Below are positions 7,037-48,197 of a DNA stretch of 64,000 nucleotides, piece after piece. Within the stretch, counting starts at the first letter, position 1; each line of letters begins with the position of its first letter. The notes under the pieces were generated by a model. The model had not been told where the DNA came from. It saw only the letters and a list, made by a program, of their open reading frames with translations, and ran no database searches. Origin of the DNA: Nanobdellota archaeon (GTDB lineage Archaea; Nanobdellota; Nanobdellia; Pacearchaeales; GW2011-AR1); the NCBI GenBank assembly GCA_030647965.1, contig JAUSIT010000016.1, forward strand, positions 8,429-72,428. The letters are read 5' to 3'. A program made the position numbers and the translations under genes.

Positions 7037-7240
7037 ATGGGAAGATTTAACGACGGACCAAGAAGTGGCGGAAGTGGCGGATTTGGCGGTGGAAACCGAT
7101 TTAGAAGTTTCGAACCAAGAGAAATGTCAAAAGCAACCTGCTCTGAATGTGGAAAGGAATGCGAAGTTCCATTCAAACCTACAGAAGGCAAGCCAGTTTA
7201 TTGCAAAGAATGTTATATGAAGAAAAAGCCAAGATTTTAA
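7037..7240 (+). CDS. small Gly/Arg-rich zinc-ribbon protein
   Basis: CSECGKEC...CKEC (CxxC-x17-CxxC); AGGAGG SD upstream. Confidence 0.5.
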   Translation: MGRFNDGPRSGGSGGFGGGNRFRSFEPREMSKATCSECGKECEVPFKPTEGKPVYCKECYMKKKPRF

Positions 7241-7360
7241 TTAATCTAGGTTTTATTTAATTATAATATAAGACAATTTTTATTTTTTTTATTTAATATT
7301 TTTCTAGAAAAAGGGGTTAGAAAGGGTAATCGACGACTAATTGTACGATCTATTACCACA

Positions 7361-7415
7361 ATGTTTAAATAGTGTAATAAATACACTAAGTATGTGTATA
7401 ACACACACTAAGTAA
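7361..7415 (+). promoter_or_regulatory. conserved TATA + palindromic block shared with 12470..12535 and (related) 18121..18154; candidate NAD-regulon operator
   Basis: aatgtttaaatagtgtaataaatacactaagtatgtgtataacacacactaagtaa; palindromes agtgta-N5-tacact. Confidence 0.45.
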
Positions 7416-7439
7416 AAAACATACGACAAAATAAAAAAT

Positions 7440-7618
7440 CCCAATCACAGCAAGCTGTGGGGTATTTTTTAAATGTCGAGAATCTACGGATTCTTGAGCA
7501 CACTCCAAAACAAAATTCTCCAAGGAGAATTTTTCAAAGTTTTGGATGCCTCCAAATGGGACGACGACAAATCGTAACAAGCTACGAAGTATAAGACCCA
7601 TTTAGAGTAATCAAAAAA
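7440..7618 (+). promoter_or_regulatory. long hairpin-rich leader upstream of NAD salvage operon
   Basis: Consecutive hairpins: cccaatcacagc/gctgtgggg; cgagaatc-tacg-gattcttg; aaattctcc-aa-ggagaattt; tttgga-tgcc-tccaaa. Confidence 0.4.
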
Positions 7619-8758
7619 ATGACACAAAGAAAAAATATAAACATTGCAAGAGATTACCTTGATTTTACTGATAAATATTTTCAGAGAACAAGACAAATAC
7701 TTGAAGAAGAAGGAATAAACCCTATTGTTAGATATCAATTATTTGTAAGAAAGCCGGGAATTGTAAAAGGGGTTGATGAAGCTGTTGATTTTATTAAAAG
7801 TGTTGCTGGAAACAAGGGAAAAATTTATGCTTTAAGGGATGGAAATTCTTATGATTCATGTGAACCTTTGATAAAACTAGAGGGAAGGGTACAGGATTTT
7901 GTTAATCCTGAAACAGCATATCTTGGAATTATATCAGGAGCTTTAACAGAAAACATAAATATGGTTGATGTAAGAGAAAAAGCAAGAGATATTTTCAATG
8001 CTGCACAAGGCAAACCAGTTCTTTATATGGGCGCAAGGCATTTTGATTATTCATTAGATGAAGAAATAGCAAAAATCTGTCAAGAAGAAGGATTTATTGG
8101 ATGTTCAACAGATATTGGAGCAAAAGCCTGGAATGCAAAAGGTCTAGGAACAACTCCTCATGCTTTGATTGTAAGTTATGCTGCATATATGGATGAAAAT
8201 GGAATAAAAGGAAATGCAACTGTTGAAGCAGCAAAAGGATTTGACAAATATATTGAAAAAGATGTTGCAAGAATAATGTTAATTGATACATTTAATAGAG
8301 AAATTACAGATTCAATTGAAACAGCAAAAGCAGTTCCAAGTTTAAAAGGAGTTAGAATAGATACTTGTGGAGAAAATTATACACAAGGTTCTGTTGGTTT
8401 AAAACTTCCAGAATTAGATGTTCCTGAAAAATATCTAAGAGGAAAAGGAGTTACAATTGCAGGAGTTTGGGGCTTAAGAAAAGCATTAGTTGAAAATGGT
8501 TTTGGAAATTTAGGGCAAGTAGTTTCTTCTGGATTTAATGCAGAAAAAACAAAAGCATTTTTAAAAGCAGACAAAGCATTTCAAGATATGTATGGATTTC
8601 CTTTATTTACATTATTTGGAACAGGAAGCATTGCAAATCCAACAATGGCAACCGCAGATATTGTTGCATATTTTAATGAAAAACAAGGAAAATGGAAAGA
8701 AATGCACAAAGTTGGAAGACCTGAAATTCAAACAAGCAGATTGGAGGAAATAAAATGA
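7619..8758 (+). CDS. pncB: nicotinate (or nicotinamide) phosphoribosyltransferase
   Basis: 379 aa; similarity by eye to archaeal NAPRT; first gene of NAD salvage operon with overlapping start/stops. Confidence 0.55.
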   Translation: MTQRKNINIARDYLDFTDKYFQRTRQILEEEGINPIVRYQLFVRKPGIVKGVDEAVDFIKSVAGNKGKIYALRDGNSYDSCEPLIKLEGRVQDFVNPETAYLGIISGALTENINMVDVREKARDIFNAAQGKPVLYMGARHFDYSLDEEIAKICQEEGFIGCSTDIGAKAWNAKGLGTTPHALIVSYAAYMDENGIKGNATVEAAKGFDKYIEKDVARIMLIDTFNREITDSIETAKAVPSLKGVRIDTCGENYTQGSVGLKLPELDVPEKYLRGKGVTIAGVWGLRKALVENGFGNLGQVVSSGFNAEKTKAFLKADKAFQDMYGFPLFTLFGTGSIANPTMATADIVAYFNEKQGKWKEMHKVGRPEIQTSRLEEIK

Positions 8759-9471
8759 AAGTATTTTATGATGTAGACACACAAAATGATTTTATGAATT
8801 CAAATGGAGCATTATATGTTCCTGATGCAGAGCTAATAAAACCAAATTTGATATTATTGACTGATTATGCAGAAGGCGAAAAATATAATGAAAAAAGATT
8901 TCCAATAATTGGCTCTGTTGACAGGCATTTTGGTAGTGAAGAATATAAAGAAAGAGAAGGAGAACTTGCTAAATGGGGAGGGCCTTTTCCAGACCATTGC
9001 ATGGATAAGAGTGAAGGATATAGAAAAATAGCTGAGACATTTTTATGGACAGATAATTTTAGGGGAGATGGTTGTAGTCATACTTCTCTTTATATGGAAA
9101 ATAGATTAGATTCTTTGATAGATTATAAATTAATGCAGAAAGCTCTTGAAACAATACGTTTTAAATATCAAAATTGGGGGCCATCTGCAGTTTATTTTGA
9201 AAAACAAAGTTATGATGTTTTTACAAATCCTGCAATTGATTGTTTTTTGAGATTAGCAAAAATAGATGAAGCAGTAGTTTATGGAGTTGCAACTGATTAT
9301 TGTGTTAAAGCAGCTGTTCTTGGAATGCAAGAAAGAGGAATTAAATGTTATGTTGTAGAAGATGCAATAAAAGGAGTTTTTCCAGAATCTACACAAAAAG
9401 CTCTCGAAGAAATGACTAATGCTGGAGCAGAGCTTGTAACAACACAGGATGTTTTGGAGGGAAGAATATGA
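8755..9471 (+). CDS. pncA: nicotinamidase / isochorismatase-family hydrolase
   Basis: Isochorismatase fold motif 'VYGVATDYCVKAAVLGMQERGIKCYVVEDA' with catalytic Cys. Confidence 0.65.
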   Translation: MKVFYDVDTQNDFMNSNGALYVPDAELIKPNLILLTDYAEGEKYNEKRFPIIGSVDRHFGSEEYKEREGELAKWGGPFPDHCMDKSEGYRKIAETFLWTDNFRGDGCSHTSLYMENRLDSLIDYKLMQKALETIRFKYQNWGPSAVYFEKQSYDVFTNPAIDCFLRLAKIDEAVVYGVATDYCVKAAVLGMQERGIKCYVVEDAIKGVFPESTQKALEEMTNAGAELVTTQDVLEGRI

Positions 9472-10364
9472 CTGGAATAAAACTAGCAAGAATGAATTCT
9501 GAACTTGTTGCAGATGAGATTGGGGATTTTATTATTAATGAAATAGTGCCAATTGGATATACTGGCGGGGTGATTGGTTTATCTGGTGGAGTTGATTCTA
9601 CTACTTCTGCAGCACTTGCAAAAAGAGCATTTGATAAATATAATTTAAATTCAAATAAAAAATTAGAATTAGTTGGATGCATAATGCCTTCTAATACAAA
9701 TTCAAGTGATGATGAAAGAGATGCAAGAAAAGTTGCAGATAGATTAGGAATTAGATATGAAATTATTCCTATTGAACCTGTTATTGAAGGTTTTAGAAAA
9801 GTTATTCCAAAAATAATTGAAAGTTCTTATATAAAAGGAAATTTAAAAGCAGAAATTCGTGCTACTTTACTTCATCAATTAGCAGGTTATGAAAAAAAGC
9901 TTGTTATTGGAACAGGAAATAGAGACGAAGATTTTGGAGTTGGTTATTATACTTTATTTGGAGATGGTGCTGTTCATATGAGCCCACTTGGAGGACTACC
10001 AAAAAGACTTGTTAGGCAAATGGCATGTTATTTAGGATTTTCTGATTTAGCAAATAGAATTCCAACAGCAGGACTTGAAGCAGGACAGACTGATTTTAAA
10101 GATTTAGGATATTATTATGAAACCGTTGAAGGAATTTCAGAAGGAAAATTGCAAGGATTTTCTAGATTAGAAATAATCAATGATGATTTAATTAAAGAGC
10201 TTGCAAGAAAAGATATTTCAGATTATACACAAATTTATGGAAAGAGCAAATTTTCTTCAGCAAAAGAAATAGTAAATAATGTTTTTATGAGAATGGAAAT
10301 TGCAAAAGCAAAAGGAAAAATTGTTTCACCGCCTCAACCTAAAATAAGTTTGGGGTATTTGTAA
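9468..10364 (+). CDS. nadE: NH3-dependent NAD+ synthetase
   Basis: PP-loop 'GLSGGVDSTTSAAL'. Confidence 0.75.
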   Translation: MTGIKLARMNSELVADEIGDFIINEIVPIGYTGGVIGLSGGVDSTTSAALAKRAFDKYNLNSNKKLELVGCIMPSNTNSSDDERDARKVADRLGIRYEIIPIEPVIEGFRKVIPKIIESSYIKGNLKAEIRATLLHQLAGYEKKLVIGTGNRDEDFGVGYYTLFGDGAVHMSPLGGLPKRLVRQMACYLGFSDLANRIPTAGLEAGQTDFKDLGYYYETVEGISEGKLQGFSRLEIINDDLIKELARKDISDYTQIYGKSKFSSAKEIVNNVFMRMEIAKAKGKIVSPPQPKISLGYL

Positions 10365-10365
10365 A

Positions 10366-10779
10366 ATGGAATATAAAAATCCCGGAGCAACTGTGGATTT
10401 GATTGTTGAAAAAGAAGGCAAAATACTTTTGATTAAAAGAAAAGATGAGCCATTTAAAGAAATGTATGCTCTTCCTGGCGGTTATTTAGAATGTGGAAAA
10501 GAAAATTTAAAACAAGCAGGGGCAAGAGAGTTATATGAAGAAACTAATTTAAGGACTAATTTAGAAAATTTATTTCTTGTAGGAGTTTATTCTGAACCAA
10601 ATAGAGATCCAAGAGGGCACGTAATATCTCATGCTTATTTTGTCAGAGATTACACTGGAGATGCTAAAGCAGGAGATGATGCAAAAGAGCTTGCATGGTT
10701 TGAATTAGATAAACTTCCAAAACTTGCATTTGACCATGATAAAATAATAAATGATTTTTTGAGGTTAAATGGGAGATAA
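10366..10779 (+). CDS. Nudix hydrolase (ADP-ribose pyrophosphatase-like)
   Basis: Nudix box 'GGYLECGKENLKQAGARELYEETNL'; paralogous to N-domain of 18155..18817. Confidence 0.7.
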   Translation: MEYKNPGATVDLIVEKEGKILLIKRKDEPFKEMYALPGGYLECGKENLKQAGARELYEETNLRTNLENLFLVGVYSEPNRDPRGHVISHAYFVRDYTGDAKAGDDAKELAWFELDKLPKLAFDHDKIINDFLRLNGR

Positions 10780-11221
10780 AATGAAATATATAGAATGCCC
10801 TGAAGTTTATAATAAAAAAGGAAATGAAAAATCTTTATTTATTGCTGGGGGCATAACTGAATGTGGAAACTGGCAGAATGATTTTATTGATTCACTAAAA
10901 AATGAAAATCTTATTGTATTAAATCCTAGAAGAAAAAATTTTGATATAAATGATGAAGAAATTTCTATTGCTCAAATAAAATGGGAATATGAACATTTGA
11001 AAAAAGCATCTGCAATTTCTTTTTGGTTTACATCTGAAACTCTTTGCCCAATAACATTATATGAATTAGGAAAAGTACAAGCTAGTAGAAAGCCTGTTTT
11101 TTTAGGAGTTCATCCAGCTTACAAAAGAAAATTTGATTTAGAAGTTCAGACAGGATTGATAAGACCTGAAACTAAAATTGTTTATTCACTAAATGATTTA
11201 TCTAAGCAGGTGATTGAATGA
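10769..11221 (+). CDS. nucleoside 2-deoxyribosyltransferase-like protein
   Basis: Weak resemblance ('YELGKVQASRKPVF'); placed in NAD/nucleotide cluster. Confidence 0.3.
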   Translation: MGDKMKYIECPEVYNKKGNEKSLFIAGGITECGNWQNDFIDSLKNENLIVLNPRRKNFDINDEEISIAQIKWEYEHLKKASAISFWFTSETLCPITLYELGKVQASRKPVFLGVHPAYKRKFDLEVQTGLIRPETKIVYSLNDLSKQVIE

Positions 11222-11771
11222 AGTGAAAATGACAAATAAAGAAAAATATGAAGCAACTTTGATTGGATGTGCAATTGGAGATGTTTTGGGAATGCCTATT
11301 GAAGGTTGGAAAAGAGAACAGATTAAAAAATATGTTGGAAAAGTTAGAGAGTTTATTGACCCTGTTCTTTTATATGATGAAAAAGGAGAATTGTTAAGAG
11401 AAGATGAATTTGGAAGATTAAAATATTACACAAAAAATCTTAAAAAAGGAGAGTATACTGACGATACAATTTTAACAATTGCAATTGCAGAATCAATTGC
11501 AGAAAAAAAATATCTTGATTTGGATGATAATGCAAAAAAGCAATTAGATGCATTTTTATCTGATAAGTCTCCTGATGGAAAATTCAAGAGCGGATTTGGA
11601 AAAACAACAAAAGATGGATTTTACAATTTATCAAAAGGAATTTCTCCTTTAGAATCAGGAGTTATTGGAGGACCTGGTGCTGCCCCTTCAATGAAAATTT
11701 CTCCTGTTGGATTATATATGAATGCTGTTAAAGATTATGAAAATGGATTGTTATGTCAGAAATGTGGTTAA
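11214..11771 (+). CDS. ADP-ribosylglycohydrolase family protein, N-terminal fragment (gene interrupted)
   Basis: 'LIGCAIGDVLGMPIEGW', 'YTDDTILTIAIAESI', 'GPGAAPSMKISPVGL' typical of the ARH/DraG family; ends at TAA 11769. Confidence 0.7.
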   Translation: MNEVKMTNKEKYEATLIGCAIGDVLGMPIEGWKREQIKKYVGKVREFIDPVLLYDEKGELLREDEFGRLKYYTKNLKKGEYTDDTILTIAIAESIAEKKYLDLDDNAKKQLDAFLSDKSPDGKFKSGFGKTTKDGFYNLSKGISPLESGVIGGPGAAPSMKISPVGLYMNAVKDYENGLLCQKCG

Positions 11772-11870
11772 AACCGCACCCTTTAGGGTGCTCATTTCTG
11801 AGCATCCTAAAAACAAGTGCCAATCAAACCCACACTTTTAAGTGTGGGTGGCACATTGTTTTTTTGATTT
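11762..11870 (+). other. in-frame, stop-rich, highly structured insert inside ADP-ribosylglycohydrolase gene (candidate intron / bypass element / small insertion)
   Basis: Two nested hairpin modules, each with TTTA loop: 11756-11801 (tcagaaatg...catttctga enclosing gcaccc-ttta-gggtgc) and 11814-11858 (gtgcc...ggcac enclosing acccacact-ttta-agtgtgggt); 5 in-frame stops. Confidence 0.6.
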
Positions 11871-12380
11871 TCAGAATTAATTGGAAAAATAACTCATTTA
11901 GATTCTCGTTCAATTGCAGGAGGAGTTGTTCAGGCACATTGCATTTATAGTCTGCTTCAAAATGTTTCTAAAGATGAATTTTTAGATTCTGCATCGTTTA
12001 TATGCGAGAGATTTGAAAAACCAATTTTAAAAGAATATACTCTTTCTGAAAAAGGAAATTTATTAAGCGGAATTGATTGGGTAAAAAATAATTCAGAAGT
12101 TAGTGATGAGGAAGCTTTTAAAGTTTTAAGGAATTCAAGCAATGTTTTTGAATGTCATCCATTTGCATTATTTATGTTTCAGAAATACTGGAATAATCCT
12201 ATTGAAGGCCTTATTGAAACAGTAAATTTCGGTGGGGATTGTGATACTACTGGTGCAATTTATGGTTCTCTTTGTGGTGCTAAAAATGGAATGATTTTTC
12301 CTGCTAAATGGATAGAACCTCTAAAAGACTTTGAAAAAATCAAAAAAATTGCTGATAGAATATTTGAACTTAAAGTTTAA
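11868..12380 (+). CDS. ADP-ribosylglycohydrolase family protein, C-terminal fragment (same frame as N-fragment)
   Basis: Translation from 11868: FSELIGKITHLDSRSIAGGVVQAHCIYSL...NFGGDCDTTGAIYGSLCGAKNG (conserved ARH C-terminal metal-site motif). Confidence 0.7.
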   Translation, partial: FSELIGKITHLDSRSIAGGVVQAHCIYSLLQNVSKDEFLDSASFICERFEKPILKEYTLSEKGNLLSGIDWVKNNSEVSDEEAFKVLRNSSNVFECHPFALFMFQKYWNNPIEGLIETVNFGGDCDTTGAIYGSLCGAKNGMIFPAKWIEPLKDFEKIKKIADRIFELKV

Positions 12381-12469
12381 TTTATTAATTTGTTATTTTC
12401 TCGTCGGTTTTTATAATTTCTATTTTTCCGCAATTTTCTTAAAATATTATTATCTAATTCTATACCATA

Positions 12470-12535
12470 ATGTTTAAATAGTGTATAACATACAATAACT
12501 ATGTGTATAAGTTACACTAAGGTAAGGTAATTTCT
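12470..12535 (+). promoter_or_regulatory. conserved TATA + palindromic block (second copy), upstream of NMNAT-like gene
   Basis: taatgtttaaatagtgtataacatacaataactatgtgtataagttacactaaggtaagg; outer palindrome tagtgtaac...gttacacta. Confidence 0.45.
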
Positions 12536-12570
12536 ACACAAATCAGATAAATTAGACAGAAAACAAAAAA

Positions 12571-13341
12571 ATGAAGCTTGGAAAAGTCGGATTAATAGGA
12601 AGGTTTAAGCCAGTACATAATGGAGCTGCACTTATGCTTGAAACAGTATGTGAAAAAGCAGAAAGTGTGATAATTGGAATAGGCAGCTCAAATAAGTACA
12701 ATGCACGAAATCCTTTTCTGCCTGAAGAATCAGAAGAAATGGTAAGATTAGTTCTTGAAAAATTTTCAAATCAAAAAAATCCTTTAGTTTATTCTGGGAA
12801 TTTTTTGGATGAAGGAAATTCGAGTGAATTTCCTGCCCTGAAAATTAAACAAATTTTCAGTGATCTGAAATTAAAACCAGTAAGCCTACAACCAAATTAT
12901 AAAGAATTGAATTTTAATTTCAGACATTATGAAATCTTGCATGTGCCTGATTTTTCACACATACTCCAATATAGCAACGGAGAAAAATGGAAGGAATATG
13001 TCTGTGGGCAATTTGGAGAGCTGGATAATTTTGTAACTTCAAATGATTTTGTAAAAGAATTACTAAAAGACAGATATAATATAATTCATCCTTCTGAATT
13101 AATTCCAAAAGAAAAGCAAATTTTACTGAAAGCAACAGAGGTAAGGCTTGAAATGGCCAGATTTGGAAATTGGAAAAAATTAGTTCCTGAAAAAATTTCT
13201 GAATATCTTGAAAAAAATAATCTTGTATCAAGATTTCAAAATGAATTTGGATTGCAAACTCTAGCTTTGCTGTCTGAAAATCTTAATTTAAATGAAACAG
13301 AAGATGCTGCAGAAGAAAAATTGCATGCACAGGAGTTATAA
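12571..13341 (+). CDS. nicotinamide-nucleotide adenylyltransferase-like protein (archaeal NadM family) with divergent HxGH motif and C-terminal extension
   Basis: 'LIGRFKPVHNGAAL' (HKGH->HNGA), 'IIGIGSSNKY..RNPF', 'VYSGNFL', 'YSNGEKWKEYV' match archaeal NMNAT. Confidence 0.55.
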   Translation: MKLGKVGLIGRFKPVHNGAALMLETVCEKAESVIIGIGSSNKYNARNPFLPEESEEMVRLVLEKFSNQKNPLVYSGNFLDEGNSSEFPALKIKQIFSDLKLKPVSLQPNYKELNFNFRHYEILHVPDFSHILQYSNGEKWKEYVCGQFGELDNFVTSNDFVKELLKDRYNIIHPSELIPKEKQILLKATEVRLEMARFGNWKKLVPEKISEYLEKNNLVSRFQNEFGLQTLALLSENLNLNETEDAAEEKLHAQEL

Positions 13342-14135
13342 TGGCAACAATAGGAAATTATAGAGTTTTAACTCAAATTGGAGAGGGCGGATTTGGAAGA
13401 GTTTTTCAGGCAGAACATTTAGTTCTTGGAGAAAAAGCATGTTTAAAACAAAATATAAACAGTTCTGTAGAAGATGTTGAATTATTAAAGCACGAAGTAA
13501 AACTACTTTGGAATTTAGATGAATATCATTCTATTCCTTCTGTAAAAGATTTTATCCAATTAGACAGGACAAATGCAGTGCTTGTTATGAAATATATAGA
13601 CGGAAAAACTTTGGAAGATATTGTTGAAAAAAAAGGTCCTCTATATCCTGAAGATGCATGTTGGATAACAGAAAGATTGCTTGGAGCATTATTTTATGCT
13701 CATTGTTATGGGACTATTCATTCTGATGTTAAACCTCAAAATGTATTTGTTGAACCAAGAAAACATGATATTAAATTAATTGATTTTGGATTGGCAAGTT
13801 ACAAGCCAGGCAGCCATACTAAACCTGCAGGTTATACCCCAAAATATGCTGCACCAGAACTAGTTAATGGAAATCCTCCAATTCCTCAAACAGATCTTTA
13901 TGGAGTTGGAATGGTAATGTTAAGAGCTTTAGGAGGGGATATTGCAAAAAAAAGTTTTAGAAGCGATACTCCTGAAGAAATCACTGAATTTTGCAATGAA
14001 TTATTGAGATATAATCCTCTTGAAAGGCCATCGTGGGAAAAAAATAATCCTTTAGAGAGATTAGCTAATGTTCGTGAGAAAGTTTTCGGAAGAAGACATT
14101 CCAGCGATGATAAACTGAAAGGAGGTGGAATGTAA
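13341..14135 (+). CDS. Hanks-type serine/threonine protein kinase
   Basis: Gly loop 'IGEGGFGRVF', catalytic loop 'HSDVKPQNVFV', 'DFGLA', 'APE'. Confidence 0.7.
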   Translation: MATIGNYRVLTQIGEGGFGRVFQAEHLVLGEKACLKQNINSSVEDVELLKHEVKLLWNLDEYHSIPSVKDFIQLDRTNAVLVMKYIDGKTLEDIVEKKGPLYPEDACWITERLLGALFYAHCYGTIHSDVKPQNVFVEPRKHDIKLIDFGLASYKPGSHTKPAGYTPKYAAPELVNGNPPIPQTDLYGVGMVMLRALGGDIAKKSFRSDTPEEITEFCNELLRYNPLERPSWEKNNPLERLANVREKVFGRRHSSDDKLKGGGM

Positions 14136-15099
14136 AATGTATGCATGGGGCGGCTCAACAGCAGATTGGGCAGGAAAAAGTAAATATGACTTTGGCTCTG
14201 CAAGAGCAAGATATGACAAAATTGCAGCAACTGCAGCATCAAGAACTTATACAAGAAGAAACGAGCCAGATATGGCTCTTGTTGATGCAAGAGGAAAAAC
14301 ACTTACAAGTGAAAGTGAAAATCCTTTAATAATTGCAGTAGATGTTACTGGTTCAATGGCAGAATGGCCTGCTGAAATTTTTGACAGGTTGCCTTTGTTA
14401 TATCAAACTCTTGGCAAATATAGGCCAGATTTAGATATAGTATTTGCAGCAATTGGGGATGCAACATGTGATTCATATCCTTTGCAAGTAAATGATTTTG
14501 CAAAAGACACAGGTGAGTTAGAAAAAAAACTAAAAGCACTTGGATGTGAGGGCGGCGGAGGCGGCCATATCACAGAGAGTTATGAATTATTTGGCTATTT
14601 TATGCAAGAGCATTGTAATACTCCAAAAGCAAAATCTCCATTTTTATTAATATATGGAGATGAAGCTTTTTATGACAAAGTAGACCCAAGGCAAGTTAAG
14701 CATTATATCGGAGATGATTTGCAGTCTCCATTAGATACCAAAGAAGTATGGCAAAATTTAATGCAGAAATACAATGTGTATTATATGCAAAAACCATATG
14801 GTGGTGGATATGATTCCAGCACTACTCAAAAAGTTAAAGAGCTTTGGGGAGATGCTTTGGGAAAAGAGAGAATTATACAGTTGCCAAGCATGGAGAGAGC
14901 AGTAGATGTTGCAATAGGATTAATTGCAAAGCAATGGGGGGAATTTAGCGATTTTAAGCTAAGCATGGACGCAAGACATGATGACCCTAGCCTTAAAGAT
15001 TCTGTATATAAATCTCTAAGACATATTGACGCAGATCCTGCACCAACTTCAGTAATGGCTAAAACAGGTTCAGTAAAAACCAAGTCATTATTGAGTTAA
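14125..15099 (+). CDS. von Willebrand factor type A (vWA) domain protein
   Basis: MIDAS-like 'IIAVDVTGSM'; start overlaps kinase stop. Confidence 0.6.
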   Translation: MECKMYAWGGSTADWAGKSKYDFGSARARYDKIAATAASRTYTRRNEPDMALVDARGKTLTSESENPLIIAVDVTGSMAEWPAEIFDRLPLLYQTLGKYRPDLDIVFAAIGDATCDSYPLQVNDFAKDTGELEKKLKALGCEGGGGGHITESYELFGYFMQEHCNTPKAKSPFLLIYGDEAFYDKVDPRQVKHYIGDDLQSPLDTKEVWQNLMQKYNVYYMQKPYGGGYDSSTTQKVKELWGDALGKERIIQLPSMERAVDVAIGLIAKQWGEFSDFKLSMDARHDDPSLKDSVYKSLRHIDADPAPTSVMAKTGSVKTKSLLS

Positions 15100-15203
15100 A
15101 TTTAAAGAAAAAATTTATTTTTTTATTTTTTTATTTTAATTAAGCAAGAAGAAATTAAACAAGACAGAGATATCAAAAAAATGAAACAAACAAAACAAGC
15201 AAA

Positions 15204-16112
15204 ATGAAGAAAACAATAAATGCAATTGTGACAATGCCACCATATGCACCATTTATAGACGAGGTTATAGAACATCCTCTTGTAAAAGGAATAAGGCTCA
15301 ATATAGTTATGCCTATAAAAAAAGATAAAAGAGAAGAATTATTGAAAGGCCTTTATGAAAAAACAAAAAACAAAAATAAGGAATTGTGGCTTGATTTAAA
15401 ATGCAGGCAGTTAAGAACTGAAAATTATGGAGTTCCTCCATTTACAGAAATTGAATTGAGCCATAAAATACAGGTTTATACTCCATGCAAAGCATATTTT
15501 TCAGATAGAAGCATAAGTGCAACTATTTTAGAAGTTGATGGAAATAAATTAATAATGCAAGAAGGTCCAAAAAGAGTTATTGGGCCAGGGGAGTCTGTAA
15601 CAATTCCTCATCCGACACTTCAGATTGAAGGCTATTTAACAGACAAAGATAAAGAGTATATTGAAACCGGAAATAAAATTGGGCTTAAGAATTATATGCT
15701 CTCTTTTGTTGAAAAAAAAGAAGATATCGAAGAATTAAAAAAATACTGCAAAGATGCAACTATAATTTCTAAGATAGAATCTCAAAAAGGTATTGATAAT
15801 CTCAAGGAAATTAATACTAGATTAATGGCTGCACGGGGAGATTTGTATATGGAGCTTAATTGGCCTCATGAAATAATTTTTGCAGTTGAAAAAATTCTTG
15901 CAAAAGATGAAAATGCAATGGTCGCTTCAAGAATTTTTTCCTCCCTAGAAGAAAGGCTAGAGCCATCATGTGAAGATTTAGGGGATGTAGATAATCTTTT
16001 GAGAATGGGATATAAAACTTTTATGTTCGGAGATGACATTTGCTTTAAAAAAGATTCTATAATTGGTGCATTGAATTTGCTTTCAATAATGGCAAGGAGG
16101 TATGTGGGATAA
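15204..16112 (+). CDS. pyruvate kinase-like TIM-barrel domain protein (truncated relative to PK)
   Basis: 'LWLDLKCRQLRT' (cf. LDTKGPEIR), 'ISKIESQKGIDNLKEI', 'LMAARGDLYMEL' (cf. MVARGDLG). Confidence 0.4.
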   Translation: MKKTINAIVTMPPYAPFIDEVIEHPLVKGIRLNIVMPIKKDKREELLKGLYEKTKNKNKELWLDLKCRQLRTENYGVPPFTEIELSHKIQVYTPCKAYFSDRSISATILEVDGNKLIMQEGPKRVIGPGESVTIPHPTLQIEGYLTDKDKEYIETGNKIGLKNYMLSFVEKKEDIEELKKYCKDATIISKIESQKGIDNLKEINTRLMAARGDLYMELNWPHEIIFAVEKILAKDENAMVASRIFSSLEERLEPSCEDLGDVDNLLRMGYKTFMFGDDICFKKDSIIGALNLLSIMARRYVG

Positions 16113-16184
16113 ATATTGCACTATGAAAAGTAATATTGCTACATAAAAATATTATCATTAAACTCTTTAAGTAATGCTACCAGT

Positions 16185-16375
16185 ACGGGAAAAAATTTTG
16201 CTCTTGTATCTTTATGTTATATATTATAAGAGCAAAATTTTTTGTTAGACAAGAAACAGGGTTAAGGCTTGTTCAACATTATTATCTCATCAGGTATTAA
16301 TTAATGGTGATTGTCGCTAGACAATCTTAGTATAATTGCTTGTTAAAGCAAACTATCTCAACGTAGTTGCATATC
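16185..16375. repeat. structured intergenic repeat family, copy B (with partial internal duplication)
   Basis: hairpin aaaattttgctctt-N22-aagagcaaaatttt; shared 3' block ttgtcgctagacaatcttagtataattgcttgttaaagcaaactatctcaacgtagttgcatat. Confidence 0.6.
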
Positions 16376-16437
16376 AAGTTTAGTAATTTACCTAACTCTC
16401 GCATAAAATTCATAAACACAAAAAACATTAGTATAAC

Positions 16438-17010
16438 ATGAAAAAAATAGCAATTTTTGGAGGAAGTTTTAATCCAATACATAACAGTCATGTAAATATA
16501 GTAAAAAATTTAATTGATTCTAAAATAGTTGATGAAGTCTGGATTTTACCATGCAGAAAACATGTTTTTAATAAAACTCTTGCAAAAGAAAAAGATAGAG
16601 TTAAAATGATTAAATTAGCCTTAGAAAATATAAAAAATGTTAAAATTTGCAATATTGAATTAAAATCAAAAGAAAAAAGTTATACTATAAAAACTCTTAG
16701 AAGAATAAAAAGGAAATTTGGGAAAAAATATAAATTTTTTATTATAATTGGTTCTGATATTATTTATGAAGTAAAAAAATGGTATAAATATCAAGAACTG
16801 TTTAATGAGGTTGAATTTATTGTATTTAAAAGAAAGGGATATTTAATTAAAAAAGTGAACGGCATGAAGATTTACCATATTATTAATAAAAAAGAAAGTG
16901 GGCTTTCTTCAACAGAAATTAGGAAAAGAGCAATGCAGGGCAAATCTTTTAAAGCGCTTGTTCCAGTAAAAGTTAGTAAATATATACTCGAGAAGAAGTT
17001 ATACCTATGA
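16438..17010 (+). CDS. nadD: nicotinate-nucleotide adenylyltransferase (bacterial NadD-type)
   Basis: 'IAIFGGSFNPIHNSHV' nucleotidyltransferase motif, about 190 aa. Confidence 0.65.
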   Translation: MKKIAIFGGSFNPIHNSHVNIVKNLIDSKIVDEVWILPCRKHVFNKTLAKEKDRVKMIKLALENIKNVKICNIELKSKEKSYTIKTLRRIKRKFGKKYKFFIIIGSDIIYEVKKWYKYQELFNEVEFIVFKRKGYLIKKVNGMKIYHIINKKESGLSSTEIRKRAMQGKSFKALVPVKVSKYILEKKLYL

Positions 17011-17879
17011 AAATACAAACATTTACAATTGTTGCAGGAACTGCAGCATGCAATGCAAAATGCCCATATTGTGTTTCAAAAATGACTCCTCATCAAGGAG
17101 TTGGATTTGAAAAGCCTGTTGTAAACTGGCTTAATTTTGACAAAGCATGCAGGCTTGCACAAATCAGCAATGTCAGCACTGTTTTAATTACTGGAAAGGG
17201 TGAGCCAACATTATACCCTGAACAAATTACAGAATTTCTTAAAAGATTAAAAAAATTTGATTTTCCTTTAATTGAAATTCAGACAAATGCTCTTTCTTTT
17301 GGCAAAGATTTCAAAAAATATGAAAAACATCTTAAACAATGGAGAGAATTGGGATTAAACACAATTGCAATTTCTTTTGTTAGTGATAAAAAAGAAGAAA
17401 ATAAAAAAATTTATACTCCTGATTCAGATTATATTGATTTAGAAGATACTATAAAAAAATTACATAATCTTGGATTTTCTATCAGATTAAGCTGCATCAT
17501 GCTAAAGGGAGTTATGGATAGTGTTGAAAAAGTAAAAAAATTAGCTGAAAATGCAAAAAAATGGAATGTTGAACAACTAACTGTTCGTTCTGTAAAAGCA
17601 TCTGATTATTCTGAAGATAGTGATGTTTACAAATATGCAAAAGAACACGAACTTAGTGATGGACAAATTTTAGATATAGGAAAATTTCTTGAGAAAAATG
17701 CAAAAAAATTAATGACACTAGACCACGGAGCAGTTGTATATGATTTAGACGGACAAAATATATGCATAACAGATTGTTTAACTATAAAATCAAATACAGA
17801 AGAATTAAGACAGTTAATATTTTTCCCAGATGGACATTTAAGATATGATTGGAGATATGCTGGCGCAGTGATTATATAA
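17007..17879 (+). CDS. radical SAM domain protein
   Basis: 'CNAKCPYC' CxxxCxxC near N-terminus, 'TGKGEPTL'; start overlaps nadD stop. Confidence 0.55.
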   Translation: MKIQTFTIVAGTAACNAKCPYCVSKMTPHQGVGFEKPVVNWLNFDKACRLAQISNVSTVLITGKGEPTLYPEQITEFLKRLKKFDFPLIEIQTNALSFGKDFKKYEKHLKQWRELGLNTIAISFVSDKKEENKKIYTPDSDYIDLEDTIKKLHNLGFSIRLSCIMLKGVMDSVEKVKKLAENAKKWNVEQLTVRSVKASDYSEDSDVYKYAKEHELSDGQILDIGKFLEKNAKKLMTLDHGAVVYDLDGQNICITDCLTIKSNTEELRQLIFFPDGHLRYDWRYAGAVII

Positions 17880-17934
17880 TACAAAACTATAAAATTTACA
17901 CTTGCAAATTATTGCACTTCGTTAAAATACTAGG

Positions 17935-18090
17935 TCGCTTAGTGGCTCCTATCTATTAATTAATAAATCGTGATTGAAAAAGTTTCGCCCTTATATTCTT
18001 AGGTTATTTATTGTAAGAGTAAAACTTTTTTGTTAGACAATTATATTATCCTTGTTCAGTGAACAAACTATTTCAACGCAGTTGCATATG
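17935..18090. repeat. structured intergenic repeat family, copy C
   Basis: taattaataaatcgtgattgaaaaag + hairpin + ttgttagacaattatattatccttgttcagtgaacaaactatttcaacgcagttgcatat. Confidence 0.6.
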
Positions 18091-18120
18091 AGGTCTTTAA
18101 ATTTATATCATAGATAGAAT

Positions 18121-18154
18121 AAATTTAAATAGCTTATTGTAATAATAACACTAT
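18121..18154 (+). promoter_or_regulatory. TATA (aaatttaaatag) plus element related to the 7361/12470 motif directly upstream of the NrtR-like gene
   Basis: cttattgtaataataacactat; reverse complement atagtgttattattacaataag resembles atagtgtaataaatacactaag at 7368. Confidence 0.35.
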
Positions 18155-18817
18155 ATGGAAAAAGAGTTTGAAAAGCCTTCTGTAACTGTTGACATAGTTA
18201 TTTTTACTGTATTTGAAAAAGAGTTAAAAGTTCTTCTTGTAAAAAGAAATATTGAGCCATTTAAGGGCATGTGGGCGATTCCTGGGGGGTTTGTAAGAAT
18301 GAATGAATCTTTGGAAGATGCTGCAAAAAGAGAGCTATCTGAAGAAACTGGTGTAAAAGATGTTTATCTTGAACAACTTTATACATTTGGAGATATAAAA
18401 AGAGATCCTCGAGGGAGAGTTATTACTGTTTCTTATTATGCTTTAGTAAAGCCAGAAGGAATAAAATTAAGTGCTTCAACAGATGTATCAGAAGCAAAAT
18501 GGTTTTCTATTTCTAAAATACCTAAACTTGCATTTGACCATAAAAAAATATTGGAATATGCTTTAAAGAGATTAAAATGGAAATTTGAATATAGTTTGAC
18601 TGCTTTTTCACTTTTACCTGAAAAATTTACATTAGGTCAGATTCAAAATATATATGAAATTGTTTTTGAGAAAAAATTTGACAAAAGAAACTTTGCCAAG
18701 AAATTAAAGTCCCTTAATATTTTAAAAACAGAAACAATTGAAAAAAATGTTTCATTTAGGCCCCCTCAAACATATTCATTGAAAAAAGATATAAAAGAAG
18801 TTATTGAGATTTTGTAG
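18155..18817 (+). CDS. NrtR-like Nudix-related transcriptional regulator (Nudix N-domain + C-terminal winged-helix-like domain)
   Basis: Nudix box '[24 protein letters not shown]'; C-terminal '[32 protein letters not shown]' as in NrtR family. Confidence 0.5.
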
Positions 18818-21761: not shown

Positions 21762-21868
21762 GGGCTTATAGTTCAATGGATAGAATGCCAGGCTTCGGTG
21801 GGCTTACTTTATTTAGTTAAAGAAGATGGAGAAACCTGTTGATCGAGGTTCGAATCCTCGTAGGCCCA
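21762..21868 (+). tRNA. intron-containing tRNA, anticodon read as TCG (Arg), about 36-nt intron 3' of position 37
   Basis: Acceptor GGGCTTA/TAGGCCC, D-arm GTTC..GAAT, anticodon stem CCAGG, loop CTTCGG, T-arm CGAGG-TTCGAAT-CCTCG; intron GAAG can pair with loop CTTC; no encoded CCA. Confidence 0.6.
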
Positions 21869-37658: not shown

Positions 37659-38411
37659 ATGATAAAAGAGAATATTCTTAAAATAAAATCTGAAATTCCT
37701 GAAAATATTAAAATTATTGCTGCAACTAAAACAAGAAGCATAGATGAAATAAAAGAAGCTCTTTATTCTGTGATAAAAATAATAGGGGAAAATTATGTTC
37801 AAGAAGCAGAAGCAAAGTTTAATTTTTTGAAAGAATTGAAAAAAACTGCTGATGTTCGAAATGTAGTTCAAATTGCTTCCCAAGAAGAGATACATTTCGG
37901 AGCATCCCAAAAACCTAATAAACCGGAGGGTTTTTCTGATTTTGAAATTCATTTAATAGGTCATTTACAAAGAAACAAAACAAAAAAAGCTGTTGAAATT
38001 TTTGATTTAATCCAGACAGTTGATTCTATGGAAATTGCAAGAGAAATTGATAAGAGATGTTCTGAAATAAATAAGATAATGCCTGTTTTAATTGAAATAA
38101 ATATTGCCAAAGAAGAAAATAAAACCGGCTGTATGCCTGAAAATGTTTTTAAATTAGCAGAAGAAATTTCCAAGCTTAAAAATATTAAATTAAGAGGAAT
38201 TATGGCAATAGGGCCAAATTTTGATGACAAAGAAAAACTAAGACCTTATTTTAATGAAGCTAAAGAGATATTTGAAGAGTTAAAAAAAACAAATAAAGAA
38301 ATTGAAATTTTATCAATAGGAATGTCTGATTCTTGCAAGATTGCAATTGAATGCGGTTCTAATATGGTTAGAATTGGAACTTCTATTTTTGGGGAAAGGA
38401 TCCCTAAATAA
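37659..38411 (+). CDS. YggS/PROSC-family PLP-binding protein
   Basis: 'KIIAATKTRS', 'HLIGHLQRNKTKKAV'. Confidence 0.65.
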   Translation: MIKENILKIKSEIPENIKIIAATKTRSIDEIKEALYSVIKIIGENYVQEAEAKFNFLKELKKTADVRNVVQIASQEEIHFGASQKPNKPEGFSDFEIHLIGHLQRNKTKKAVEIFDLIQTVDSMEIAREIDKRCSEINKIMPVLIEINIAKEENKTGCMPENVFKLAEEISKLKNIKLRGIMAIGPNFDDKEKLRPYFNEAKEIFEELKKTNKEIEILSIGMSDSCKIAIECGSNMVRIGTSIFGERIPK

Positions 38412-45836: not shown

Positions 45837-46020
45837 CTATTACAAATCATAATCAAACAAATATAAATTAATAACAACGCAGCATAAAGACAACTTTTAA
45901 CAACACAATATAGAAATAACACAGACGCACAAGAGACAAACAGACAATAAAAATCTGAAATACCCTGCGAAACAAGATAAAAACAAGAAAGAAAGGAGAA
46001 ATATCTCAAAAGAAGATTAG

Positions 46021-46148
46021 TTTTAACTAGATTTAACCTTAATATATTCCTGAAATACCTATTTAATAGACTTCTAAATAGATTTTGAAATTGAAATAGC
46101 TTAATTTAAAACAAAAAGAATTGAAATAGCTTTTAACTGGGTTTAACA
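46021..46148. repeat. paired direct repeats at the compositional boundary
   Basis: ttttaactagatttaacc (46021-46038) / ttttaactgggtttaac (46131-46147); ttgaaatagctt at 46091 and 46121; preceded by AC-rich T-poor stretch 45840-45990. Confidence 0.5.
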
Positions 46149-46177
46149 AACAGAAACATCTCTGAAAGGAGAGGAAT

Positions 46178-46435
46178 ATGTATTATATCGCTGGGATATT
46201 TGTTCTTTTCGCATCTATCTTTCTCGGAGGAGAAAAAGAGCTAAAGATGCAGGTATTAATTGGCTGGGGAATTGGGATTATTGGCATGGCAATATGGTTC
46301 ATCGTAGGGGGGATTGAAAAGTTGGTAAAAGAAATCTCTGAACTAAGAAAAGAAATCTCCAAACCGAAGAAGGAAGAAGCTCCCCCGGAAACTGCCAGAA
46401 CTGACGAAGGTTCCCAAGCCAGCATGGTAAGATAA
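46178..46435 (+). CDS. small membrane protein
   Basis: SD gaaaggagagg; two TM helices. Confidence 0.45.
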   Translation: MYYIAGIFVLFASIFLGGEKELKMQVLIGWGIGIIGMAIWFIVGGIEKLVKEISELRKEISKPKKEEAPPETARTDEGSQASMVR

Positions 46436-46455
46436 AATTCTCTACGAAGATGATT

Positions 46456-46494
46456 AAGGGCCTTATTGCATTCAAAAGGGTGAGGCCCTTTAAT
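46456..46494 (+). terminator. intrinsic terminator-like hairpin
   Basis: aagggcct...aggccctt stem followed by taattt. Confidence 0.45.
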
Positions 46495-46522
46495 TTGAAA
46501 ATAATTATTTACCCCATATAAA
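46495..46522 (+). promoter_or_regulatory. sigma70-like promoter (TTGAAA ... TATAAA)
   Basis: ttgaaaataattatttaccccatataaa. Confidence 0.4.
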
Positions 46523-46562
46523 TAGCAATTCATAAATTGAAATATCTCTGAAAGGGGGAATT

Positions 46563-46742
46563 ATGTTAACTATAATAGTGATTTTTTCAGCATTACTTTT
46601 GAATTCATTTAAAGTATGGGGGGGTTTATGGGTATTCTTTTGGTTTATTAGAAAAGAAGGGACAATAATTTTTCCAATTATTAATCTTTATATGTGGGTA
46701 TGTTGGTATATGATTATTTTTACTCTTTTTTCAATACATTAA
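46563..46742 (+). CDS. small membrane peptide (59 aa)
   Basis: SD gaaagggggaattatg; hydrophobic. Confidence 0.35.
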   Translation: MLTIIVIFSALLLNSFKVWGGLWVFFWFIRKEGTIIFPIINLYMWVCWYMIIFTLFSIH

Positions 46743-46761
46743 CTTTTTCAAAGGAGGGAAT

Positions 46762-46905
46762 ATGTTCTTCTCATTTGTAATTCTGCCTCCCCCTGAAGTT
46801 AGCGACCCTGGAGCATATTTGGGGTGGATGATAATAAACTTCTTTTTGTGGTATTATATTCTTAATGGGATTGTAAACTTTAGTACCATGAAAAGAAAAA
46901 AGTGA
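46762..46905 (+). CDS. small membrane peptide (47 aa)
   Basis: SD caaaggagggaatatg. Confidence 0.3.
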   Translation: MFFSFVILPPPEVSDPGAYLGWMIINFFLWYYILNGIVNFSTMKRKK

Positions 46906-48192: not shown

Positions 48193-48197
48193 AAATA

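Follow-up and report, generated by a model that had tools for sequence, protein, structure and literature searches.

Genes at the locus

The window, by which the whole 64-kb stretch of DNA is meant, contains an NAD salvage operon, an operon headed by a NadM-like gene and, downstream of both, a gene for an NrtR-type protein. The genes are as follows.

7619..8758, plus strand: NAPRT, archaeal-type nicotinate phosphoribosyltransferase (Pfam QRPTase_N; NCBIfam NAPRT models)
8755..9471, plus strand: isochorismatase-family nicotinamidase, PncA-like (Pfam, NCBIfam)
9468..10364, plus strand: NadE, NH3-dependent NAD synthetase (PF02540, E 5e-49; TIGR00552, 157 bits, cut-off 64)
10366..10779, plus strand: stand-alone Nudix hydrolase (Pfam, NCBIfam)
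10769..11221, plus strand: nucleoside 2-deoxyribosyltransferase-like (NDT-like) protein, Nuc_deoxyri_tr2, PF15891 (Pfam)
11214..12380, plus strand: ADP-ribosylglycohydrolase (ARH), ADP_ribosyl_GH (Pfam), the frame being the same on both sides of an interruption
12571..13341, plus strand: divergent NadM-like nucleotidyltransferase (NCBIfam PRK01153; alignment with the L004 homologue)
13341..14135, plus strand: Ser/Thr protein kinase, co-transcribed with the NadM-like gene
14125..15099, plus strand: 324-aa protein without a Pfam family, co-transcribed with the NadM-like gene
15204..16112, plus strand: pyruvate-kinase-barrel-like (PK-like) protein, the barrel domain alone (NCBIfam)
16438..17010, plus strand: NadD, bacterial-type nicotinate-nucleotide adenylyltransferase (TIGR00482, 164.3 bits against a cut-off of 112.45)
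17007..17879, plus strand: radical-SAM gene, overlapping NadD
18155..18817, plus strand: NrtR, with a Nudix effector domain followed by an NrtR winged helix at the C-terminus (Pfam, NCBIfam, PDB alignment)

It can be observed that the gene ends from 8755 to 11221 abut or overlap, which is consistent with a single operon. The original prediction had assigned the genes from NAPRT to ARH (7619-12380) to one operon, and their identities were upheld by Pfam and NCBIfam; ARH, however, is interrupted rather than intact. The NAPRT product matches the NCBIfam NAPRT models at E 6e-44, yet stays under their equivalog cut-offs. The DNA of the stand-alone Nudix gene is 71-77% identical to the Nudix region of nrtR (families D9 and D15), and its product, paralogous to that domain of NrtR, is probably an ADP-ribose pyrophosphatase. 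The homologue of the NDT-like gene in locus L003 has an NrtR box of its own.

The product of 12571-13341 falls below the family cut-offs (75.7 bits against 127 for PRK01153, 57 against 181 for TIGR01527) and carries the motif GRFKPVHNGA, with HNGA in place of HxGH; its L004 homologue, relative to which it has a 47-aa insert, likewise reads HNGA. It is best named NadM-like, its activity being uncertain. Of the archaeal NMNAT and bacterial NadD that had been predicted to coexist, NadD stands, but the NMNAT is divergent and below cut-off. The trio of NadM-like, kinase and 324-aa genes is also present in L004, and L004 and L165 likewise show the PK-like gene in linkage with NAD genes. The order NadD-radical-SAM(-nrtR) recurs in L083 and L167, and the radical-SAM gene adjoins nrtR or NAD genes in L001, L002, L162 and L166.

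The Nudix and winged-helix protein

The protein encoded at 18155-18817 had been proposed to resemble NrtR, with a Nudix domain and a winged helix, and this agrees well with the domain and structure comparisons. Its N-terminal part is a Nudix domain (Pfam PF00293, E 2.8e-24), and the HMM check of the C-terminal domain against the NrtR-type winged helix, which leaves the idea unrefuted, gave a match to NrtR_WHD (PF21906) at E 4.3e-18 and 65.6 bits (cut-off 27), covering positions 1-61 of 61. Homology to Shewanella oneidensis NrtR (3gz5, 3gz6, 3gz8) is full-length (for 3gz5, E 2e-40 over residues 3-213), and the best PDB match, Bacteroides thetaiotaomicron AraR (BtAraR, 5bs6), also aligns over the full length. 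The NCBIfam model ‘ADPR responsive transcriptional repressor’ (NF050029) matched at 174 bits (E 3e-51); its equivalog cut-off of 400 bits was not reached, and by sequence the window NrtR is a homologue outside the narrow orthologous group used to train this model. The top NCBIfam matches after it were NadM-Nudix ADPR pyrophosphatase models.

The Nudix signature GX5EX7REUXEEXGU is complete in the window NrtR and, among the matches listed, in 117 of its 120 nearest homologues, and the architecture of Nudix domain plus winged helix is found in 120 of 120 DPANN homologues among these matches, at identities of at least 69%. Most NrtR-family proteins have a degraded signature, and NuhA, members with an intact one, are active hydrolases (Rodionov 2008, PMC2330246). 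Unlike most of the family, the window NrtR retains the full catalytic signature; because its Nudix box is intact, it may also hydrolyse its own effector, and its role may even be mainly enzymatic. In the extreme case, the protein would be primarily an ADP-ribose pyrophosphatase with a vestigial winged helix, while another factor acts on the palindromes described below. The prevalence of the intact signature and the activity of NuhA point in that direction, but conservation of the winged helix is strong: it matches its Pfam family over the full length, overall identity in DPANN is 70-76%, and the box accompanies the gene in archaea and bacteria alike. The operon, moreover, already has a separate stand-alone Nudix paralogue, and the roles of enzyme and regulator are mutually compatible. 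We regard a primarily enzymatic protein as very unlikely.

Promoters, palindromes and the proposed regulon

The NrtR box is a 21-bp palindrome, ATAGTGTA-N5-TACACTAA, which includes the published GT-N7-AC core; the consensus of the palindromes is (A/T)TAGTGTA-N5-TACACTAA. In bacteria, the NrtR motif is a 21-bp palindrome with this core, located upstream of the targets and often of nrtR itself (PMC2330246). The following elements belong to the promoters of the NAPRT operon (P1), the NadM-like/kinase operon (P2) and nrtR (P3).

7364..7371, plus strand: P1 TATA box TTTAAATA, its last 3 nt overlapping NrtR box 1 (TTTAAATAGTGTA at 7364-7376)
7369..7389, no strand: P1 NrtR box 1 ATAGTGTAATAAATACACTAA, perfect palindrome with GT-N7-AC core, 22.7 bits
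7391..7411, no strand: P1 NrtR box 2 TATGTGTATAACACACACTAA, 15.3 bits, 22 bp downstream of box 1
12473..12480, plus strand: P2 TATA box (from sequence)
12478..12498, no strand: P2 NrtR box 1 ATAGTGTATAACATACAATAA, 20.6 bits
12500..12520, no strand: P2 NrtR box 2 TATGTGTATAAGTTACACTAA, 14.9 bits
18124..18131, plus strand: P3 TATA box, 31 nt ahead of the ATG, leaderless
18134..18154, no strand: candidate autoregulatory NrtR box TTATTGTAATAATAACACTAT, 19.2 bits, ending at the nrtR ATG

In a matrix scan of the 64-kb window, five positions score at least 14 bits, all five of them in the three NAD/nrtR promoters. The pattern TAGTGTA-N5-TACACTA, with up to three mismatches, has nine matches in the window against 1.9 expected, a number reached in 0 of 100 shuffles. 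Six of the nine fall within the three promoters (at 7370, 7392, 12479, 12501, 12523, which is weak, and 18135), with a tandem spacing of 22 bp; the third P2 repeat, at 12522, scores merely 5.8 bits in the matrix. No NrtR box was found by the window scan at the NadD, radical-SAM or PK-like genes of this genome. The first box of each promoter begins within the TATA box or just past its end, and P1 box 2 spans the predicted transcription start (about 7394).

A block shared by the NAPRT operon and the NMNAT-like gene had been reported at about 75% identity; the similarity is in fact higher, 85% over 59 nt without gaps (7354-7412 and 12463-12521, family D13). The palindromes reported within it are real and enriched, but the longer form, tagtgtaac...gttacacta, merely combines box 1's left arm with box 2's right arm. 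The inverted element described as abutting the nrtR start was located at 18134-18154. Such a block might simply be a strong promoter (BRE/TATA/initiator), either generic or duplicated, whose palindromes are incidental and which has no specific regulator. Leaderless first genes in the window as a rule have a TATA box at about -30 (-29 to -32), TTTAAATA being common ahead of them, and the identity of P1 and P2 could reflect recent duplication; the palindrome, however, is confined to the three NAD/nrtR promoters and missing from all others in the window, so that the check for a generic promoter left the idea unrefuted. The box is also kept at NAD and nrtR promoters of 17 other DPANN loci despite differing flanks, and it occurs upstream of nrtR in high-GC bacteria, where archaeal promoter constraints cannot apply. 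A promoter without a dedicated regulator is thus extremely improbable.

In these 17 DPANN loci, the NrtR box lies between the TATA box and the ATG of nrtR, NAPRT, NadA and other NAD operons. For cross-validation, a matrix built from the five window sites alone gave 21 matches of at least 12 bits in 201 kb from 15 other DPANN loci, where shuffles give 3.6, and 18 of the 21 are directly ahead of nrtR or an NAD operon. The genes preceded by a box include PncB-type NAPRT, NadA and NDT-like genes. In most loci the box reaches from the TATA box, which its 5' arm overlaps, to about 3 nt ahead of the ATG, where its 3' arm ends. At the nrtR start, the box has the same position in 12 DPANN homologues, and autoregulation, as predicted, gains support from the conserved TATA-to-ATG box that most of the examined DPANN homologues carry. 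In L167, the closest relative, the same TATA box is combined with tandem boxes at NAPRT (box 1 kept at 9952, box 2 identical in sequence at 9974), and nrtR has one box. Furthermore, among the long DPANN contigs examined, nrtR adjoins NAD genes wherever its neighbours are visible, an association seen in the window and in L001-L004, L083 and L163-L168. A literature search returned no paper linking NrtR with DPANN. The expectation that the layout is unusual in an archaeon consequently holds for the searchable literature, but not for sequence data, where the module is widespread in DPANN.

Bacterial nrtR homologues are 50-58% identical at the protein level, and a site is present within 200 nt upstream of nrtR in 46 of 147 loci. 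The density of sites there is 1.98 per kb, compared with 0.028 per kb elsewhere (about 70-fold enrichment), and tandem sites 21-27 nt apart occur in 16 bacterial loci. The fetched bacterial homologues and the window have in common the consensus TTAGTGTA-N5-TACACTAA, a 21-bp palindrome with the GT-N7-AC core. Regulons of Cyanobacteria, Chloroflexi and Pirellula comprise pncB-nadD-nrtR-nadE, nrtR-pncA and pncB (PMC2330246). The archaeal system resembles the bacterial ones, these groups in particular, in the Nudix plus winged-helix protein, in tandem sites 22-23 bp apart, and in the presumed autoregulation and control of pncB, pncA, nadE and nadA. It differs in its archaeal host, in operators grafted onto mostly leaderless TATA promoters and in the addition of NDT-like, radical-SAM, methyltransferase and NadM-like/kinase genes. 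The Streptomyces nrtR1-draG operon links NrtR to an ADP-ribosylglycohydrolase gene (Table 1, PMC2330246), a linkage also seen in the window, although here ARH stands last in an NAD salvage operon and a repeat element interrupts it. A neighbour-joining tree of the window NrtR and 159 homologues groups the window protein with 15 other archaeal NrtRs in one clade; the position of this clade among bacterial NrtRs suggests a single bacterial-to-archaeal transfer, and bacteria are the most likely source of the module together with its operator.

An NrtR-family regulator may also serve functions other than NAD metabolism, as do AraR and XylR in Bacteroidetes, or respond to another ligand. AraR is, after all, the best PDB match, and the putative regulon includes genes without a known NAD role (the kinase and the 324-aa protein; a methyltransferase and a radical-SAM gene in relatives). 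Sugar-utilisation genes, however, are absent nearby, the boxes stand ahead of NAPRT, NadA, NadE-containing operons and NadM-like genes, and the motif fits that of the NAD-type homologues found in Chloroflexi, Cyanobacteria and Planctomycetes (Table 1, PMC2330246), which makes a non-NAD function very unlikely.

We consider it probable (roughly 0.8) that the locus represents a regulon for NAD salvage under an NrtR-type repressor that responds to ADP-ribose, the host being a DPANN archaeon of Nanoarchaeota/Pacearchaeota type. What was observed directly is the domain architecture, the sequences of the operators and where they lie, how specific they are within the window, and that relatives among archaea and bacteria conserve them. 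Repression, ADP-ribose as the effector and binding as a dimer are expected by analogy with the bacterial family (Rodionov 2008, PMC2330246). NrtR would bind the 21-bp palindromes, most likely as dimers. The first palindrome of each promoter would extend from within or just past the TATA box to the transcription start, and at P1 and P2 a second, 22 bp further on (one box-length, about two helical turns), would cover the start site; from these positions, bound repressor should block recruitment of TBP/TFB or RNA polymerase. Upon NAD consumption, ADP-ribose would accumulate and bind the Nudix domain, NrtR would leave the DNA, and the NAPRT-PncA-NadE-Nudix-NDT-like(-ARH) operon, the NadM-like/kinase operon and nrtR itself would be de-repressed. 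The arrangement looks like a whole bacterial regulatory switch, repressor and sites, moved into a small symbiotic-type DPANN archaeon. A more speculative extension, which we hold only tentatively, is that DPANN captured the complete NrtR-operator module once and rewired it to TATA/leaderless promoters, with NrtR as a bifunctional ADP-ribose sensor-hydrolase and an expanded regulon (radical-SAM, NDT-like, pyruvate-kinase-barrel and the NadM-like HNGA protein with the Ser/Thr kinase) forming an undescribed route of ADP-ribose/NAD recycling in host-dependent archaea.

Insertions and a repeat element

Two insertions interrupt the NAPRT operon.

7420..7612, plus strand: structured lineage-specific insertion of about 193 nt between operator and NAPRT ATG, absent in L167
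11754..11867, plus strand: structured repeat element of 114 nt inside the ARH ORF, its boundaries taken from intact homologues

The first is bordered by A6 runs (7414-7419 and 7613-7618), has a fold z of -7.1 and gave no match in Rfam. Because of it, the shared block lies 208 nt from the NAPRT ATG; in L167, box 2 ends 5 nt ahead of that ATG. Within it are a terminator-like hairpin with a T-run (7445-7468) and a TATA-like TATAAGA at -29 of the NAPRT ATG, and therefore NrtR control of the operon may be weakened or bypassed. Taken further, the system could be decaying in this genome, with NAPRT uncoupled from its operator, ARH killed by a 114-nt insertion with five in-frame stops, and the layout a relic. 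Against this, nrtR, all other ORFs and all five boxes are intact, P1 box 2 is unchanged relative to L167, P2 and P3 are undisturbed, and read-through from P1 may still occur. Decay is accordingly judged a slim prospect, and a functioning NrtR regulon is preferred.

The ARH insertion has a fold z of -5.9 and carries five in-frame stops. An archaeal bulge-helix-bulge intron (at the two boundaries, a 4-bp helix between two 3-nt bulges, excision restoring the frame) was considered and rejected: no canonical in-frame candidate was present, the in-frame candidates were weak, and the best such pairing, 11737/11859 (122 nt), does not lie in frame. Further copies of the repeat family occur in L168, L167 and at 37853-37924 of the window, four copies having been seen so far. 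Rickettsia palindromic elements are short structured repeats of about 100-140 nt within protein-coding genes. The present repeats are likewise short, structured and inside protein-coding genes, but they differ in their archaeal host, the stops of the ARH copy, the number of four copies and their unrelated sequences. One copy of the family is stop-free and in frame, located in a surface insertion of a conserved YggS-like enzyme.

The regulator and its gene neighbourhood

The original prediction held that this stretch carries an NrtR-type NAD regulon. By comparison with related proteins and loci the finding is correct and well supported, the regulator being placed as an archaeal member of the known NrtR regulatory family. 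The 220-aa protein carries a Nudix domain (E 3e-24) followed by a winged-helix domain that matches NrtR_WHD over its full length (E 4e-18), as had been proposed for the C-terminal half of the 18155-18817 product. The NCBIfam model for ADPR-responsive repressors matched at E 3e-51, under its narrow equivalog cut-off, and the protein aligned end to end with the solved NrtR-family proteins 3gz5 (E 2e-40) and 5bs6 (E 4e-45). The Nudix signature is intact in the window protein and in 117 of the 120 best homologues listed. An identical nrtR is also present in the sequencing run SRR13727527. Among the bacterial family members, those that keep the signature intact tend to be genuine ADP-ribose pyrophosphatases (PMC2330246). 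The intact box of the window protein points to a regulator that may also degrade its effector.

Genes of the neighbourhood (window positions; assigned by Pfam and NCBIfam)
7619-8758, NAPRT
8755-9471, nicotinamidase-type isochorismatase
9468-10364, NadE
10366-10779, stand-alone Nudix hydrolase
10769-11221, deoxyribosyltransferase-like (NDT-like) protein, PF15891
11214-12380, ADP-ribosylglycohydrolase (ARH)
12571-13341, NadM-like protein
13341-14135, Ser/Thr kinase
14125-15099, 324-aa protein without family
15204-16112, pyruvate-kinase-barrel-like (PK-like) protein
16438-17010, NadD, above the TIGR00482 cut-off
17007-17879, radical-SAM protein
18155-18817, Nudix plus NrtR_WHD protein (NrtR)

The gene list of the original prediction was thus borne out with two qualifications, an interrupted ARH and a divergent NMNAT. 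Regarding the latter, the 12571-13341 protein falls below the NadM cut-offs, and HNGA replaces the HxGH nucleotidyltransferase motif both here and in the homologue (1786-2385) of another DPANN locus, L004. The order of the NadM-like gene, the kinase and the familyless 324-aa protein is kept in the window and L004, and in the window the trio stands under an NrtR box.

Two further features of these genes were observed. The stand-alone Nudix gene is a paralogue of the Nudix-coding half of nrtR (18155-18600), given 71-77% DNA identity in two stretches (families D9 and D15); the Nudix box of the stand-alone copy is slightly irregular. The radical-SAM gene, which has no specific family, repeatedly adjoins NadD, nrtR or NAD salvage genes in DPANN archaea (window, L001, L002, L083, L162, L166 and L167), and in L162 it heads the nrtR operon with tandem NrtR boxes in front.

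Operator boxes in the window and in other DPANN loci

The predicted shared promoter-operator block is real, with 85% identity over 59 nt between 7354-7412, before the NAPRT operon (promoter P1), and 12463-12521, before the NadM-like gene (promoter P2). Each copy consists of a TATA box with two 21-bp palindromes behind it, spaced by 22 bp; the nrtR promoter has a single palindrome.

Predicted NrtR boxes (window positions; palindrome and matrix)
7369, P1 box 1, ATAGTGTAATAAATACACTAA
7391, P1 box 2, TATGTGTATAACACACACTAA
12478 and 12500, P2 boxes 1 and 2
18134-18154, nrtR promoter, single box ending at the ATG, TTATTGTAATAATAACACTAT

The box core, GT-N7-AC inside a 21-bp palindrome, is an exact match to the published description of the NrtR site (PMC2330246). 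Allowing up to 3 mismatches, the box consensus occurs 9 times in the window vs 1.9 expected, a count reached in 0 of 100 shuffles, while matrix scores of at least 14 bits occur at five positions in 64 kb, all of them the P1, P2 and nrtR-promoter boxes. The TATA part by itself is nonspecific (7 matches vs 7.3 expected in the window). A generic promoter, the reading that was to count against an NrtR regulon, is therefore set aside only because of the palindromes, which within the window are specific to the NAD and nrtR promoters. No box was detected upstream of NadD (best 5.3 bits) or of the PK-like gene (best -0.8 bits), and a candidate third box at 12522 scored 5.8 bits and was not counted.

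It should be noted that the intergenic regions upstream of NadD (16113-16437) and nrtR (17880-18154) are 72% identical over a common block of about 270 nt. Terminator-like hairpins are located at 16190-16243 and 17977-18030, and a 26-nt core, CAAACTATYTCAACGYAGTTGCATAT, occurs within the window only in these two blocks. The core or the whole block may serve as another regulatory site or encode an sRNA.

The comparison was extended to 17 other DPANN loci with nrtR or the NAPRT operon. In 12 of 15 loci, the region upstream of nrtR reads TATA, then (C)TTATTGT-N7-ACACTA, then ATG; in the remaining three, nrtR lies behind another gene whose promoter has the box, namely radical SAM (L162) or a methyltransferase (L164, L165). 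A matrix derived from the five window sites only gave 21 matches of at least 12 bits in 201 kb of DPANN loci vs 3.6 in shuffles, 18 of the 21 being directly before nrtR or an NAD operon. The genes preceded by a box vary among loci.

Genes or operons preceded by a box
L002, PncB-type NAPRT
L003, NDT-like gene
L004, NadA
L163, unknown gene, then NadM-like gene and nrtR
L166, operon NAPRT-PncA-rSAM (radical SAM)-NadE-NadD-Nudix-NADK

In most DPANN cases the box starts within the TATA element (TTTAA|ATAGTGTA) and stops some 3 nt short of the ATG. Overlap from the TATA box to near the start codon is the classic position of an archaeal repressor. The archaeal clade is large: all of the at least 120 clusters listed, with 69-100% identity, have the Nudix plus winged-helix architecture, and the named clusters among those listed are Nanoarchaeota, Pacearchaeota, Woesearchaeota or 'archaeon', one being labelled Paceibacterota. 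In the DPANN locus L168, the tandem-box block is duplicated in one contig (4442-4531 and 9925-9967) with identical TTATTGTAAATAATACAATAA at both copies, the first of which is followed at a distance of about 400 nt by a PP2C phosphatase gene.

Bacterial relatives, proposed origin and mechanism

Among the matches listed, the nearest non-archaeal homologues have 50-58% identity and belong to Chloroflexi, Planctomycetes, Cyanobacteria, Acidobacteria and other phyla. The same motif, TTAGTGTA-N5-TACACTAA, accompanies the bacterial homologues in genomes of 50-70% GC. A site lies within 200 nt upstream of nrtR in 46 of the 147 bacterial loci among the matches listed, tandem sites 21-27 nt apart are present in 16 loci, and site density is 1.98 per kb upstream of nrtR vs 0.028 per kb elsewhere. 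Protein, motif and tandem geometry therefore travel together. A rough NJ tree was built from the window NrtR and 159 homologues; in it, the window protein groups with 15 other archaeal sequences in one clade, for which one transfer from bacteria to archaea would be the simplest reading of the sequences. The NrtR papers found in the literature search are all on bacteria, no paper was found combining NrtR with any DPANN term, and a study of Sulfolobus Nudix proteins reports no HTH-fused Nudix in Sulfolobus.

The mechanism of regulation is inferred by analogy with tested bacterial NrtR proteins. NrtR dimers on the boxes would block access to the DNA between the TATA box and the transcription start site, the predicted transcription starts (TATA start plus about 30 nt) being at about 7394, about 12503 and 18153-18155, and the 22-bp tandem spacing would place two dimers on one helix face. 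ADP-ribose from NAD-consuming reactions would bind the Nudix domain and release the repressor, and this release would in turn switch on salvage as well as the NadM-like module and nrtR. A repressor and its operator could thus cross domains of life and, by overlapping the core promoter, are predicted to function despite a different basal transcription machinery. NAD supply is likely critical for host-dependent archaea, and the system offers a testable handle on gene regulation in these uncultivated organisms. Furthermore, conserved regulon membership makes a role in NAD or ADP-ribose metabolism a candidate function for several unknown enzymes.

Inserted elements and composition of the window

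The closest relative of the window, L167, has a NAPRT 85% identical to that of the window and the order NAPRT-PncA-NadE-Nudix-NDT-like-NadD-rSAM, an intergenic gap, then nrtR-NADK. The segment from ARH to the PK-like gene (11214-16112), P2 included, is absent from the corresponding place in L167. The P1 block of L167 is nearly identical to that of the window, and its box 2 stops 5 nt before the ATG. In the window, an insert of about 193 nt (7420-7612), flanked by A6 runs and missing in L167, separates the operator from the NAPRT ATG. It is strongly structured (fold z = -7.1) and includes a hairpin with T-run that resembles a terminator (7445-7468) and, at exactly -29 of the ATG, the TATA-like sequence TATAAGA; in this genome the NAPRT operon may therefore be under weaker NrtR control or escape it. 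No further copy was found in the window or in any DPANN locus compared, and Rfam at E up to 10 gave no riboswitch, ribozyme or sRNA family for 7200-7700. In L167, about 70 nt (15072-15140; A-run, hairpin, T-run) separates the nrtR operator from the nrtR ATG, and is another small insertion at the promoter/start-codon junction.

The ARH gene is present in the operon as predicted; its reading frame is broken by about 114 nt with five in-frame stops, and 51 codons of the window correspond here to 13 residues in intact homologues. The insert (11754-11867, 114 nt) is GC-richer, adopts a closed three-hairpin fold (z = -5.9) and ends in a T-run. An intron of the BHB type was rejected, since the structure is not a canonical bulge-helix-bulge, and Rfam gave no family for 11700-11950 at E up to 10. 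An apparent ARH insertion in L002 is a stretch of Ns in the deposited sequence and not an element. By nhmmer, the insert belongs to a dispersed repeat family found also in two other DPANN genomes.

Copies of the ARH-insert repeat
L168 564-428, minus strand, E 3e-33, overlapping the 5' coding end of nadC
L167 3403-3281, minus strand, E 2e-22, just downstream of the FEN-1 gene
window 37853-37924, plus strand, E 7e-4, inside a YggS-like ORF

The family has the appearance of a short element, selfish or structured, that can reside inside coding genes. The ARH gene may be a pseudogene, or the element may be excised from the RNA, and neither is favoured here. A search of IMG/VR gave no exact 19-mer match to the element; 12 gapped-pattern matches are attributed to chance, with no nhmmer match. 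The degenerate, stop-free copy at 37845-37943 lies in frame within the YggS-like ORF (37659-38411) and forms a 33-residue insertion vs solved YggS structures (query 63-95 vs chain 70-71). It is read in the frame of the ARH copy, with sense codons where that copy has stops, GGA for TGA and CAA for TAA (ttc tga gca tcc taa aaa to ttc gga gca tcc caa aaa). The arrangement resembles that of the Rickettsia palindromic elements, which also lie within genes. In-gene repeats, as in the NAD salvage operon, are a separate lead on DPANN genome dynamics. Within the NadM-like gene, a 47-residue in-frame segment (12769-12910), whose RNA is a string of hairpins (fold z = -3.6), is missing from the L004 homologue and, from this one comparison, may be a further inserted element.

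The window is AT-rich, with 26-34% GC up to 46 kb. These first 46 kb are archaeal, on the basis of a tRNA gene with an intron, TATA boxes at leaderless first genes and no sigma-70 enrichment. The tRNA gene (21762-21868, 107 nt) scores 54 bits with the Rfam covariance model, is missed by ARAGORN and is the sole Rfam match in the whole window at the gathering threshold. A TTTAAATA-type TATA box begins 27-32 nt before the ATG at the first genes of operons, implying leaderless mRNAs, and GGAGG-type ribosome sites precede internal operon genes. A window scan for sigma-70 promoters gave 61 vs 57 expected, as anticipated for an archaeon. Spt4, ribosomal proteins S27e and S24e, Rpb7, primase, PolB and FEN-1 are present on related contigs.

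Three origins are conceivable for the region 46000-64000: a foreign island, a segment derived from bacteria, or chimeric assembly. GC climbs there from about 27% to 35-45%, and the genes have strong GGGAGGTGA ribosome sites. An OmpA-domain fusion and parts of ABC transporters are among the products, and five genes are followed by a conserved hairpin repeat, AAGAGAGGCATTATA...TATAGTGCCTCTCT.
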